Shown here piece after piece: positions 30,453 to 57,523 of a stretch of DNA of 57,719 nt. Source of the DNA: Oscillospiraceae bacterium (lineage in GTDB: Bacteria; Bacillota; Clostridia; Oscillospirales; Ruminococcaceae); the NCBI GenBank assembly GCA_017473015.1, contig JAFUNP010000006.1, forward strand, positions 1 through 57,719, given 5' to 3'. Below the pieces are notes generated by a model that made no database searches, was not told the origin of the DNA, and saw only the letters and a list, made by a program, of their open reading frames with translations. Position 1 is the stretch's first letter. Each line of letters begins with the position of its first letter. The position numbers were made by a program, and so were the translations under genes.

Positions 30453-30528
30453 GCTTGTGTGGCTCAGCTGGCAGAGCAGCTCACTCGTAATGAGCAGGTC
30501 GTGAGTTCGAATCTCATCACAAGCTCCA
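30453..30528 (+). tRNA. tRNA-Thr (anticodon CGU)
   Basis: Manual cloverleaf: acceptor gcttgtg/cacaagc, D-arm gctc...gagc, anticodon stem gctca/tgagc with loop cuCGUaa, T-arm gtgag-ttcgaat-ctcat, encoded CCA. Followed by a terminator hairpin acccggtt..accgggt and a T-run. Confidence 0.85.
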
Positions 30529-53953: not shown

Positions 53954-54220
53954 ATGGATTATTCTTTCAGACTTCTGCTCAGTCCTCTGCTGGGAGGAAT
54001 GGGCGTGGCTGGCAGATTTGTGATTGCGCTGGGTATACTGGCTATACTCAGATTTCTGGACAAAAACGACCCCGAAACAGACAAAGGTATCAGAAAACTG
54101 CTGGTATGGCGGATTATCTTTGTGGTATTGGCTGTGTTTGTGATGGCTTTTCTTGCAGGTCTGTATATTTACGGCTTTGCCATGCCGCTGGACTATCTGT
54201 TTGACTTTATAATGTGGTGA
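53954..54220 (+). CDS. small membrane protein (2 TM)
   Basis: Strong RBS agggag; 88 aa; hydrophobic. Confidence 0.45.
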   Translation: MDYSFRLLLSPLLGGMGVAGRFVIALGILAILRFLDKNDPETDKGIRKLLVWRIIFVVLAVFVMAFLAGLYIYGFAMPLDYLFDFIMW

Positions 54221-54236
54221 TAAAAGGAGATTTATT

Positions 54237-54473
54237 ATGTCTGTACCGTTTTTTCTGATTACGGCGCCGGCTTATTCGCCGGTTCTTACCAAATGGGATA
54301 TACTGCGATGTATTGCTATGATTGTGGCCACAGCGGCACTGATTCCCACAATATACCGCCGCTCCACAGGTACAAAGCGTACTGCACTTATTGCTTTTGC
54401 AGTGCTGGTCTGCCTGTTTGTATGCGGAAGCATCCTGCTGCCGGTATGGATAAGTGACCTTATGGTATATTAA
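54237..54473 (+). CDS. small membrane protein (2-3 TM)
   Basis: Strong RBS aaggag; 78 aa. Followed by terminator 54481-54515. Confidence 0.45.
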   Translation: MSVPFFLITAPAYSPVLTKWDILRCIAMIVATAALIPTIYRRSTGTKRTALIAFAVLVCLFVCGSILLPVWISDLMVY

Positions 54474-54670
54474 AGCAGCCGGACCTCCCCTATGATAAAC
54501 GGGGGAGGTTTTTAATATCTGGTGATAAATGCACCAATTATGGCTTTGTCAGTTGAAAGCCTCCCCCTGTCTGGCAATCACACTTTTCTCCCAGTATCAT
54601 ACATATTTTAAATGTGAAAATTTTCCATTTGTCAATATATGCTTTCACTAACTTTTTACATTTGTTTTTG

Positions 54671-54699
54671 TTGACAATGCAAAAACGCTGTGGTAAAAT
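54671..54699 (+). promoter_or_regulatory. sigma-A-type promoter of the P-type ATPase (TTGACA-17-TGgTAAAAT, extended -10)
   Basis: Consensus -35 TTGACA at 54671-54676 and TGnTAAAAT at 54691-54699. Confidence 0.6.
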
Positions 54700-54705
54700 T
54701 TAGTT

Positions 54706-54831
54706 GTTAATAAGGGAGTAGTCGACAGATTACCTGTTACATGGCCAACAACCGCAGCTGCCATCAGCCGCTGGCGATGTATGAAATGACGAGACTTATC
54801 TGCACAAACAAGGGCAGATAGGTCCTTTTTT
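54706..54831 (+). ncRNA. structured 5-prime leader with intrinsic terminator; candidate yybP-ykoY (Mn2+) riboswitch
   Basis: aAGGGAGUAG at 54711-54720 resembles the conserved L1 GGGGAGUAG of yybP-ykoY. Strong hairpin gacuuaucugc...gcagauagguc (54793-54822) followed by U7. Mn riboswitches are known to control P-type ATPases (for example Streptococcus mgtA). Confidence 0.4.
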
Positions 54832-54886
54832 TATGACTTATCCCCATAGCCCTGAACAAATACACCATAAGAAAAGGGGAGTAATT

Positions 54887-57523
54887 GTGAAACACTATCT
54901 TGAAGAATTTGCAAAAATTATGAAAGACCTTTCCGTTACAGATGCAGGTCTTTCCCAGGCCGAAGCTGCCGACAGACTGGCAAAATACGGCCCTAACAAG
55001 CTGAAAGAAGGCGAAAAAGAAAGCCTGATTTCAAAATTTTTAAAAGAACTTTCCGACCCGATGACAATCATCCTGATTGTTGCAGCTGTTATTTCAGCTG
55101 TTACAGCATCTATTTCCGGCGAAGGCTATGCAGACGTATTTATCATTATGTTTGTTGTAATCATGAACGCTGTGCTGGGTGTTTACCAGGAAAGCAAGGC
55201 TGAAGCTGCCATCGAAGCACTGCAGCAGATTGCAGCCGCTACAAGCAAAGTAATGCGCGACGGTCACCAGCTGACAATCAAAAGTGAAGAACTGGTACCT
55301 GGCGACATCATCCTGCTGGAAGCCGGCGACAGCGTACCTGCTGATGCCCGTATCATCGAAAGCGCCAGCATGAAAATCGAAGAAGCTGCCCTGACAGGTG
55401 AATCTGTACCTGTTACAAAACACGCTGATGTGCTGACAGCTGAAGCAAACGGCGAAGTACCTCTGGGCGACAGAAAGAACATGGTTTACATGGGTTCTAC
55501 AGTTGCTTATGGCCGTGGCCGTGCTGTAGTTACAGCTACAGGTATGGAAACAGAAATGGGTAAAATCGCTGATGCCCTCACACAGGCAAAAGACGAAGAC
55601 ACACCTCTGCAGGTTAAAATGGGCGAACTGTCCAAAATCCTGTCCTTTATCGTTCTGGGTATCTGTGCTGTAATCTTTGCAGTAGATATTTTCAGAAACT
55701 TCTCCACAGGCATTACAGGCACAATGATGCTGGATACATTCATGGTTGCTGTATCACTGGCTGTTGCAGCCATTCCGGAAGGTCTGTCTGCTGTTGTTAC
55801 TATCCTGCTGTCCATCGGCGTTACAAAAATGAGTAACAACCAGGCTATCATCAGAAAACTGACAGCTGTTGAAACACTGGGCTGTACACAGATTATCTGC
55901 TCTGACAAGACAGGTACTCTCACACAGAACAAAATGACAGTTGTTCAGCGTCATACAGACAATGACGAACTCCATGTAAAAGCTATGGCTCTCTGTTCTG
56001 ACGCCGAAATGGAAGGCGAAAGCGCAGTGGGCGAACCTACAGAATGTGCTCTGGTTAACGATGCTTTCAAAGAAGGCATGCACAAAGCACAGCTGAAAGC
56101 TGACTACCCACGTGTGGGCGAAGCTCCATTTGACTCCGGCAGAAAAATGATGAGTACAGTACATGCTGACCCACAGGGCGGCTTTGTACAGTTTACAAAA
56201 GGTGCTCCTGACGAAATTCTGAAACGCTGTACAAAAGCATTTGTAAACGGCAAAGTGGTGGAAATGACTGAGGAAGTAAGAGATTCCATCCTGGCTGCAA
56301 ACAAATCCATGGCTGACCAGGCTCTGCGTGTTCTCTGCTCCGCTTACAGAACATACAGCGAAAAACCAGCTTCCAACGAAGCCGGTGACCTGGAACAGGA
56401 TATGATTTACCTGGGCCTGTCCGGTATGATTGACCCTATCAGACCAGAAGTAAAAGACGCTATCGTTGAATGTAAAAACGCCGGTATCCGCGCTATCATG
56501 ATTACAGGTGACCACAAAGATACAGCTGTTGCTATTGCAAACCAGCTGGGCATCCTGGGCGAAGGCCAGCATGCTATCACAGGCGCACAGCTGAACGAAC
56601 TCAGCGACGAAGAGCTGGAAGCAAGAATCGAATCCTTCTCTGTATATGCCCGTGTACAGCCTGAACACAAAGTAAGAATTGTTTCCGCATGGAAAGCAAA
56701 AGGCAAAATCACAGCTATGACAGGTGACGGCGTAAACGACGCTCCATCCATCAAAACAGCTGACATCGGCGTTGGTATGGGTATTACCGGTACTGACGTT
56801 ACAAAGAACGTAGCTGATATGGTTCTGGCAGACGACAACTTTGCCACAATCGTAAAAGCTGTAGCAGAAGGCAGAAGAATTTACGACAACATCCGTAAAA
56901 CAATCCAGTATCTGCTGTCCACAAACGTAGCCGAAGTTCTGGCTGTATTCTTTGCAACACTGCTGAACTTCACAATCCTGGAACCAGCTCACCTGCTGTG
57001 GATTAACCTGGTTACAGACTCCCTGCCAGCTATCGCTCTGGGCATGGAAGAAACAGAAGCCGACAGTATGAAGAGACCTCCTCGTGATTCTGAAGAAGGT
57101 ATCTTTGCCGGCGGTATGGCATTTGATATAATTTATCAAGGTGCTGTAATCGCAGCTCTCACATTCCTGTCATTTATGATGGGTCACTGGATGGAAACAG
57201 GCATCTGGGAAATCACAGATTCCTCCCACGGTGTAACAATGGCCTTCCTGTCACTGTCACTTATGGAAATGCTGCACTCTGTAAACATGCGTTCCCGCCG
57301 TGGCTCCCTGCTGAAAATCCCTCATCAGAACAAATATCTGCTGTACTCACTGACAGGCACATTCCTGACAACACTGGCAGCTATTTATGTTCCTTTCCTC
57401 AGCGATGCATTCGGCTTCACACACATTTCCCCAATGGAATGTATCGTGGCTATCGTTATCGCTGTATCCATCATCCCAATCATGGAAGTGGTAAAAGCAA
57501 TACAGAGAAAATCAGGCAAATAA
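54887..57523 (+). CDS. calcium (Ca2+/Mn2+)-translocating P-type ATPase, PMCA/SERCA-like (P2 type)
   Basis: DKTGTLT phosphorylation site, TGES, MITGDH, TGDGVNDAPS, 10 TM helices. GTG start at 54887 with RBS aaagggga is preferred over the RBS-less ATG at 54833. Confidence 0.85.
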   Translation: MKHYLEEFAKIMKDLSVTDAGLSQAEAADRLAKYGPNKLKEGEKESLISKFLKELSDPMTIILIVAAVISAVTASISGEGYADVFIIMFVVIMNAVLGVYQESKAEAAIEALQQIAAATSKVMRDGHQLTIKSEELVPGDIILLEAGDSVPADARIIESASMKIEEAALTGESVPVTKHADVLTAEANGEVPLGDRKNMVYMGSTVAYGRGRAVVTATGMETEMGKIADALTQAKDEDTPLQVKMGELSKILSFIVLGICAVIFAVDIFRNFSTGITGTMMLDTFMVAVSLAVAAIPEGLSAVVTILLSIGVTKMSNNQAIIRKLTAVETLGCTQIICSDKTGTLTQNKMTVVQRHTDNDELHVKAMALCSDAEMEGESAVGEPTECALVNDAFKEGMHKAQLKADYPRVGEAPFDSGRKMMSTVHADPQGGFVQFTKGAPDEILKRCTKAFVNGKVVEMTEEVRDSILAANKSMADQALRVLCSAYRTYSEKPASNEAGDLEQDMIYLGLSGMIDPIRPEVKDAIVECKNAGIRAIMITGDHKDTAVAIANQLGILGEGQHAITGAQLNELSDEELEARIESFSVYARVQPEHKVRIVSAWKAKGKITAMTGDGVNDAPSIKTADIGVGMGITGTDVTKNVADMVLADDNFATIVKAVAEGRRIYDNIRKTIQYLLSTNVAEVLAVFFATLLNFTILEPAHLLWINLVTDSLPAIALGMEETEADSMKRPPRDSEEGIFAGGMAFDIIYQGAVIAALTFLSFMMGHWMETGIWEITDSSHGVTMAFLSLSLMEMLHSVNMRSRRGSLLKIPHQNKYLLYSLTGTFLTTLAAIYVPFLSDAFGFTHISPMECIVAIVIAVSIIPIMEVVKAIQRKSGK

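Follow-up and report, generated by a model that had tools for sequence, protein, structure and literature searches.

Introduction

The yybP-ykoY class of manganese (Mn2+) riboswitches includes the leader of the Streptococcus pneumoniae mgtA (caxP) gene, SN44, whose three-way junction is conserved among streptococci (Martin et al. 2019, PMC6649816). In this leader an invariant UNAAA takes the place of helix P4, loop L1 has G+AGA on its 3' side, and loop L3 carries an invariant CA that comes three nucleotides behind a C-G pair; downstream of the aptamer is a terminator, and Mn2+ turns expression ON (PMC6649816). Across the family the L3 consensus is ACAUACU, in which the third base is an absolutely conserved, Mn-coordinating adenosine (PMC12153347). 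P-type ATPases are among the targets of Mn riboswitches, as in Clostridioides difficile CD2503 and Lactococcus lactis YoaB (PMC11477304), and in Bordetella pertussis the CaCA protein BP3410, encoded under a yybP-ykoY switch that was first catalogued as the small RNA (sRNA) BprK, exports Mn2+ (PMC8546581). A further described leader is SSRC10, a terminated transcript of ~113 nt that lies directly upstream, and on the same strand, of the Streptococcus pyogenes 'putative calcium transporter' gene SPyM3_0440 (Tesorero et al. 2013, PMC3675131). Here, we analyze a 57,719-nt stretch of DNA from an Oscillospiraceae bacterium (contig JAFUNP010000006.1, assembly GCA_017473015.1; henceforth termed the window), in which an untranslated leader precedes a gene for a cation P-type ATPase.

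We conclude that this leader is very probably a yybP-ykoY riboswitch that turns transcription ON and has the three-way junction of streptococcal mgtA, and that Mn2+ is its likely ligand. This kind of switch is already known and ordinary, although it is not recognized by the database model normally used for the family. The evidence comprises the sequence elements themselves, covariation of the fold, a conserved competition between helix P1 and a terminator, and the gene context. That the RNA binds a metal, which metal this is and what the pump transports are inferred from these.

Aptamer architecture

The aptamer occupies positions 54708–54801 (~94 nt; this and all other features of the locus given below lie on the forward strand) and is the only copy in the window found by R1, a covariance model built on the alignment A1 described below, which scores it at 78 bits (E ~9e-17; E-values from this model are rough). 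We use the helix names of Martin et al.; in other papers P1 and P1.1 are called P1.1 and P1.2, and P3 and the distal hairpin P3.1 and P3.2. The switch helix P1 pairs AUAAG (54710–54714) with CUUAU (54795–54799). It leads into L1, whose 5' side GGAGUA (54715–54720), made up of invariant columns in A1, is preceded by G54714; the resulting GGGAGUA (54714–54720) faces GAGA (54791–54794), and both sides are invariant in the aligned leaders, the 3' side as one free base plus AGA. By analogy, A54717 would correspond to the A-minor adenosine of the family (role from PMC6649816, PMC12153347). The inner helix P1.1 follows, with GUCG (54721–54724) paired to UGAC (54787–54790), and then the P2 hairpin ACAG-AUUAC-CUGU (54725–54737), which covaries among relatives. 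The 5' strand of P3 (54738–54747) pairs with 54772–54781 around a G.G mismatch (54743/54776) and closes with C54746-G54773, a C-G pair invariant in the clade, and A54747-U54772. It is followed by the L3 bulge ACAACC (54748–54753), whose ACA is invariant in the clade and whose third base, A54750, would by the same analogy correspond to the absolutely conserved Mn2+-coordinating adenosine. At position 5 of L3 the window has C (C54752), against A in the family consensus. The distal hairpin beyond L3, GCAGCUG-CCAU-CAGCCGC (54754–54771), contains one A.C mismatch, and a UGAAA linker (54782–54786) stands where P4 would be, in the place of the streptococcal 'invariant UNAAA'.

A first-pass annotation of this DNA had likened the start of the leader to the invariant loop of yybP-ykoY riboswitches. 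The likeness holds: GGGAGUAG is the L1 hallmark, and it is accompanied by the ACA of L3, UGAAA, GAGA and the invariant C-G pair above L3. The sequence AAGGGAGUAG lies at 54712–54721.

Comparative analysis and covariation

For comparison we used 80 genomes of Oscillospiraceae and other Clostridia that carry an orthologous ATPase, in most of which GGGAGUA occurs ~135–220 nt upstream of the ATPase start. Alignment-free anchoring on GGAGUA and AGAC yielded 69 distinct leaders. With the 3' anchor picked among AGAC sites by best pairing, positions 1–4 of P1 are paired in 69/69 leaders, position 3 as A-U in 33 and as G-C in 35, and the three core pairs of P1.1 are likewise formed in all 69, with GC/AU, UA/CG and CG/UA swaps. 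P3, anchored on CAACA and UGG, shows four to six pair types at positions 6–8. AGA is preceded by G in 48 leaders, by A in 19 and by C in 2. The clade has U-N-A-A-A-like linkers, and the distal hairpin varies in length and sequence, with at least 4 bp abutting a conserved U-GG in 56/69 leaders.

The fold is also apparent in A1, a MAFFT alignment of 35 sequences that was fitted to no structure. Here the three-way-junction model leaves 92.5% of cells paired, compared with 76.9% in shuffles (0/500 reach the observed value) and 24–46% for slid partners, a control that somewhat favors a structure derived from the same sequences. Pairs changed on both sides make up 19/23, and P1, P1.1, P2 and P3 are each 85–98% paired, with P1.1 at 97.9% and P2 at 84.6%. 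In the model-fitted R1 alignment, 87.7% of cells are paired and 26/28 pairs show double changes; P2 rises to 96%, with double changes in 4/4 pairs. P3 is 93.6–93.9% paired, and seven to eight of its nine pairs carry double changes.

Searched with R1, 69/80 loci contain the element in a total of 71 copies, all of them on the strand of the gene and upstream of it, and no other match was found in the 315 kb searched. The 11 ATPase loci without the element gave only noise of at most 12 bits when re-searched with filters off, so we regard them as truly lacking it. Two loci have tandem aptamer-plus-terminator units before a single ATPase gene (L033:772-866 and 971-1063; L050:757-861 and 1012-1114), an arrangement that would be expected to sharpen the dose response. 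Just upstream of the leaders, on the opposite strand, an FMN riboswitch occurs at L041:741-883(-) and a ZTP riboswitch at L025:690-767(-).

Terminator and switching

Directly behind the aptamer lies an intrinsic terminator (54793–54832) with an 11-bp stem, a 10-nt loop and a U7 tract. Its stem pairs GACUUAUCUGC (54793–54803) with GCAGAUAGGUC (54814–54824), followed by C and U7 (54826–54832), and has a folding energy of -16.3 kcal/mol. The 5' arm takes in the entire 3' strand of P1 (54795–54799) together with the 3' side of L1. This layout is a property of the family: a hairpin plus T-run follows the aptamer in 68/69 related leaders, and in 65/69 at least four of the six nucleotides of the P1 3' strand fall within the 5' arm of the terminator.

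In the window the terminator conformer (-33.2 kcal/mol) is more stable than the P1-closed aptamer (-20.7 kcal/mol), and the minimum-free-energy structure contains the terminator. The default state is therefore predicted to be OFF, and a ligand that stabilizes P1 would turn the gene ON, a logic that was shown experimentally for mgtA. We propose that transcription starts at ~54706 and that two helical legs form in the nascent RNA, the first from P1-L1-P1.1-P2 and the second from P3-L3 and the distal hairpin, with the UGAAA linker replacing P4. In the absence of metal, the weak, A-U-rich 5-bp P1 would lose to the 11-bp terminator that uses the same 3' strand, and transcription would stop at the U7 tract, leaving an RNA of ~125 nt. 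Rising cytoplasmic Mn2+ would instead bridge L1 (GGAGUA/GAGA) and L3 (ACA...), dock the two legs and keep P1 closed. The terminator could then not form, polymerase would read into the P2A ATPase gene, and the pump would export the surplus cation, Mn2+ and probably also Ca2+.

Gene context

In five loci the aptamer precedes an operon in which mntP (PF02659) lies between the riboswitch and the ATPase (L027:534-1103, L042:563-1123, L058:571-1134, L044 and L055); the three mntP genes tested match PF02659 with E-values of 1e-51 to 1e-57. Beyond the ATPase orthologues, a motif-anchored scan of metagenome contigs with GGGAGTAGT-N-TCAACA-N-GAGACT, a pattern that excludes the CCAACA variant of the window itself, returned at least 80 loci; R1 confirms 78 among the matches listed and has 81 matches in all. 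For 69 of the matches listed the first downstream gene could be sorted: it encodes MntP in 38, a CaCA/Na_Ca_ex protein in 11, a P2A ATPase in 6, an ATP-binding cassette (ABC) ATPase in 3 and a TerC, a CDF and a CitMHS protein in one each, with 8 unclear. The major classes among these have all been documented before as targets of yybP-ykoY riboswitches. The CaCA class is defined by one representative tested in Pfam, to which the others were joined by BLAST clustering. Since the aptamer thus stands mostly before mntP, and also before CaCA, TerC and CDF exporters, and since there are five riboswitch-mntP-ATPase operons, we consider Mn2+ the likely ligand.

Some of these contexts deserve mention in their own right. 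Among the matches listed, an ABC-transporter ATP-binding protein follows the aptamer at L089, L106 and L154, and a CitMHS-family transporter at L116; to our knowledge, neither is a classic target of Mn riboswitches. Two contigs carry pairs of riboswitches on opposite strands ~2 kb apart (L135:3345-3496(+)/5588-5688(-) and L146:1782-1882(+)/3971-4122(-)), one copy lying before a CaCA-family antiporter and the other before an MntP-like gene.

The pocket nucleotides GGA, ACA and AGA are the same across gene classes, and position 5 of L3 differs between them. Counted over the aptamers from the ATPase loci and the matches listed, it is A in 27/30 mntP-linked copies, which gives ACAUACU, U in 9/11 CaCA-linked copies and C in 45/59 ATPase-linked copies. 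This pattern may reflect lineage or a tuning of metal affinity. It is also C in 5/5 mntP-ATPase operons, from which it follows that a genuine Mn exporter, too, is under the control of the ATPase-type pocket.

Database covariance models

In the whole window no match reaches the gathering score (45 bits) of the Rfam model RF00080. The only Rfam match at gathering level is a tRNA gene at 30453–30525 (67.1 bits). With permissive filters there is a single real match, to a different model: RF02617 ('SSRC10') aligns to the leader at 54709–54831 over its full length, positions 1–113 including the terminator, with 35.8 bits (E 3.8e-5), and its consensus in the cmscan output carries GGGAGUAG, UGAAA and GAGA plus a terminator. 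We infer that this 'sRNA' is probably not an sRNA gene and represents the streptococcal mgtA Mn2+ riboswitch in its terminated state, because its consensus has the mgtA hallmarks and it originates from the leader of an S. pyogenes calcium-transporter gene.

The relatives behave in the same way. None of 40 related leaders reaches the gathering score of RF00080 or RF02617. Below threshold, RF00080 has two significant full-length alignments, one with L038 at 39.3 bits (E 3.7e-7) and one with L007 at 31.3 bits (E 9e-5), and RF02617 matches L001, L049, L019 and L007 with 39.2–25.9 bits, so that one and the same leader, L007 (RF02617 at L007:1029-1174), is matched by both models. The first-pass annotation had proposed an RF00080 scan as a check, with the lack of a significant hit counting against the riboswitch. 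The window gave none, either at gathering or at E<=10; because the comparative evidence supports a riboswitch, we read this failure as low sensitivity of the model for the clade and not as a refutation. Taken literally, the proposed rule would have rejected a correct idea.

Three leaders before orthologous ATPases (L043:1036-1142, L046:1038-1144 and L051:1038-1143) have an extra hairpin, CCUGC...GCAGG, at the position of P4 and look like four-way-junction forms. They score poorly with R1 (18–21 bits). RF00080 gave 14.7 bits for the P4-bearing L043 in one run and no match on a shorter stretch, a filter-dependent result on which we do not rely.

Promoter and leader layout

A sigma-70-type promoter lies at 54671–54699, with the -35 element TTGACA (54671–54676), a 17-nt spacer and the extended -10 element TGgTAAAAT (54691–54699), the feature noted in the first-pass annotation; in a promoter scan of the window it matches 11/12 consensus positions plus the TG. 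The same scanner finds three promoter-like sites where 2.6 are expected in shuffles, so the match alone is little proof. Across relatives the signal is clearer: a promoter of at least 9/12 occurs at most 55 nt upstream of the element in 53/65 related leaders versus 6/65 coding controls, and the -10 of related leaders usually ends ~6–8 nt before the aptamer. The predicted transcription start at ~54706–54708 falls directly 5' of the aptamer and of AAUAAGGGAGUAG. The leader as a whole folds better than shuffles (z = -4.2; 0/200 shuffles as good).

Translation is predicted to start at GTG 54887–54889, behind the ribosome-binding site GGGGAG (54876–54881). These elements, the promoter and the hairpin plus U7 all lie at or within 1–2 nt of where the first-pass annotation had placed them. 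Between the terminator and the start codon (54833–54895) we found no significant structure (z = +0.48 versus shuffles). A second regulatory layer in this stretch, either an anti-Shine-Dalgarno pairing or a GACUUAU/AUAAG repeat, was dropped on account of this fold score and of the repeat's lack of conservation in close relatives.

Upstream of the promoter are two small hydrophobic open reading frames (ORFs) of 88 and 78 amino acids (53954–54220 and 54237–54473), for which no significant family match was found. This two-gene unit has its own terminator at 54481–54513 (stem 54481–54508 plus U5, -17.8 kcal/mol), which means that the leader hairpin is not the end of that operon.

The regulated pump

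The gene behind the leader (54887–57523) encodes an 878-residue P2A-type cation P-type ATPase resembling LMCA1, CaxP/MgtA and YoaB, as assigned from Pfam, NCBIfam and PDB comparisons. In Pfam it shows the domain set of a cation P-type ATPase. The NCBIfam models score in the order SERCA-type (648 bits), PMR1-type (644 bits) and PMCA-type (TIGR01517, 491.2 bits against a cut-off of 507), all of them below their cut-offs. Among solved structures, Listeria LMCA1 comes closest, with 688 bits over the full length, followed by SPCA1 and SERCA; SPCA1 is a Ca2+/Mn2+ pump. Since the SERCA and PMR1 models and LMCA1 score best, we assign the pump to P2A (LMCA1/SPCA-like) in place of the PMCA type named in the first-pass annotation. 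An identical database protein of 896 residues (P0001) begins at ATG 54833–54835, which abuts the U-tract. We rejected this start, given that position, the ribosome-binding site that favors GTG 54887, and the length of most homologues, 877–879 residues, with which the 878 residues obtained from GTG 54887 agree.

Discussion

The first-pass annotation suggested that the pump would be a metal-inducible Mn/Ca exporter controlled by transcription antitermination. Its regulatory part is borne out by the riboswitch hallmarks, the covarying family and the competition of terminator and P1; its metal part stays a prediction. Several points weigh against our reading. Even with permissive filters and a limit of E<=10, neither a 451-nt stretch nor the 104-nt aptamer by itself gives an RF00080 match, and the RF02617 score of 35.8 bits stays below that model's gathering score of 56. 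The window copy itself has the G.G mismatch in P3 and the A.C mismatch in the distal hairpin, and the structure was derived from the sequences on which it was then evaluated. Finally, C at L3 position 5, typical of ATPase-linked aptamers, in place of the A of the consensus and of mntP-linked copies may mean that affinity or selectivity differs, and in vitro Ca2+ is among the ions bound by the S. pneumoniae homologue (PMC6649816).

The last two points lead to the alternative that fares best, namely that fold and antitermination are as described and that ATPase-linked aptamers respond physiologically to Ca2+, or to both Ca2+ and Mn2+, with a role in calcium homeostasis. The pump is closest to the Ca2+-ATPase LMCA1, CaCA-family genes are among the targets, position 5 of L3 separates ATPase-linked from mntP-linked aptamers, and Ca2+ causes some read-through of the S. 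pneumoniae switch in vitro (PMC6649816). In vivo, however, only Mn2+ was active in S. pneumoniae and Bacillus subtilis, with no response to Ca2+ up to 10 mM (PMC6649816), and the B. pertussis CaCA protein under a yybP-ykoY switch is the Mn2+ exporter introduced above (PMC8546581). In our own comparison the metal-contacting GGA, ACA and AGA are identical in all gene classes, and it is the ATPase-type L3 (ACAUC...) that controls the mntP-ATPase operons in all five such loci. We therefore consider a Ca2+ ligand unlikely. Unlikelier still is the more far-reaching proposal that the ATPase-linked aptamers form a distinct subtype, defined by the three-way junction, by an L3 of ACA-N-C and not ACAUA and by being missed by RF00080, and that the altered L3 shifts their affinity or selectivity for metal such that they respond to Ca2+ or Ca2+/Mn2+ in vivo in gut Clostridia. 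If true, this would be the first riboswitch to respond to calcium in vivo.

That the leader has no ligand at all, and is either a constitutive attenuator or an sRNA gene whose ~125-nt product acts in trans while read-through is leakage, strikes us as very improbable. Northern blots showed SSRC10 to be a distinct small RNA (PMC3675131), Rfam lists it as 'Gene; sRNA', and the terminator fold is the thermodynamic ground state. Terminated riboswitch leaders have, however, often first been catalogued as sRNAs, for example BprK (PMC8546581) and SN44 (PMC6649816). Conservation moreover falls precisely on the residues that form the metal pocket in a riboswitch class of solved structure, the overlap of P1 and terminator in 65/69 leaders is the signature of a switch, and in every case the element stands in cis before cation exporters. 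That the hairpin plus U7 instead terminates the upstream small-protein operon and GGGAGUAG resembles the loop by chance, as the proximity of the two ORFs might suggest, can be dismissed, being refuted by that unit's own terminator, by the promoter between the unit and the hairpin, by the conserved terminator overlap, and by a conserved element that accompanies the ATPase or mntP in dozens of genomes with differing upstream genes.

If the leader is a Mn2+ riboswitch as we propose, the pump of this genome would be an exporter induced by metal that most likely serves to detoxify Mn2+, and its long leader would be explained. More broadly, an entire clade with a wide distribution in gut Clostridia escapes the public Mn-riboswitch model. 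Since RF00080 reaches gathering level for neither the window nor any of the 40 relatives, the Mn regulons of these organisms appear to be under-annotated. The family listed as the streptococcal sRNA RF02617 is evidently the terminated form of the same riboswitch. The relation of L3 position 5 to transporter class also provides a concrete starting point for asking whether metal affinity is tuned through L3.

Among known systems, the canonical four-way-junction riboswitches (RF00080; L. lactis yoaB, Escherichia coli mntP, Xanthomonas oryzae) share with this locus the L1/L3 pocket nucleotides, the two legs, the P1 switch helix and an Mn-exporter gene context that includes a P-type ATPase (YoaB). 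They differ in that the window aptamer lacks the P4 helix and measures ~90 nt compared with a model of 177 positions. The junction is not a fixed feature of the family, as E. coli alx is a natural three-way-junction member (PMC12153347); alx, however, lacks P2 and not P4, acts translationally in a pH-coupled manner and has UCAUUAC as L3 (PMC12153347). With C. difficile CD2503 (PMC11477304) the locus shares an Mn riboswitch before a cation P-type ATPase in Clostridia. The B. pertussis switch BP3410/BprK (PMC8546581) precedes a CaCA-family exporter, as some members of our clade do, and was likewise first listed as an sRNA. Both of these switches are recognized by RF00080, whereas the clade of the window is not. 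RF02617 SSRC10 aligns with the leader over its full length, including the terminator, and lies upstream of a calcium-transporter gene in S. pyogenes; it differs in its Rfam type ('Gene; sRNA') and in an annotated structure without the long-range P1 and P1.1 pairs. Closest of all is S. pneumoniae mgtA. The present element differs from it in its host, a member of the Clostridia (Oscillospiraceae-like), in a linker that within the clade is UNAAA-like and not invariant, and in unrelated helix sequences. It shares with mgtA the 5' L1 strand GGGAGUA, a UGAAA for UNAAA, the G+AGA, the CA in L3 after the invariant C-G pair, the terminator behind the aptamer, by analogy the presumed ON logic, and a P2A Ca2+/Mn2+-type ATPase downstream.

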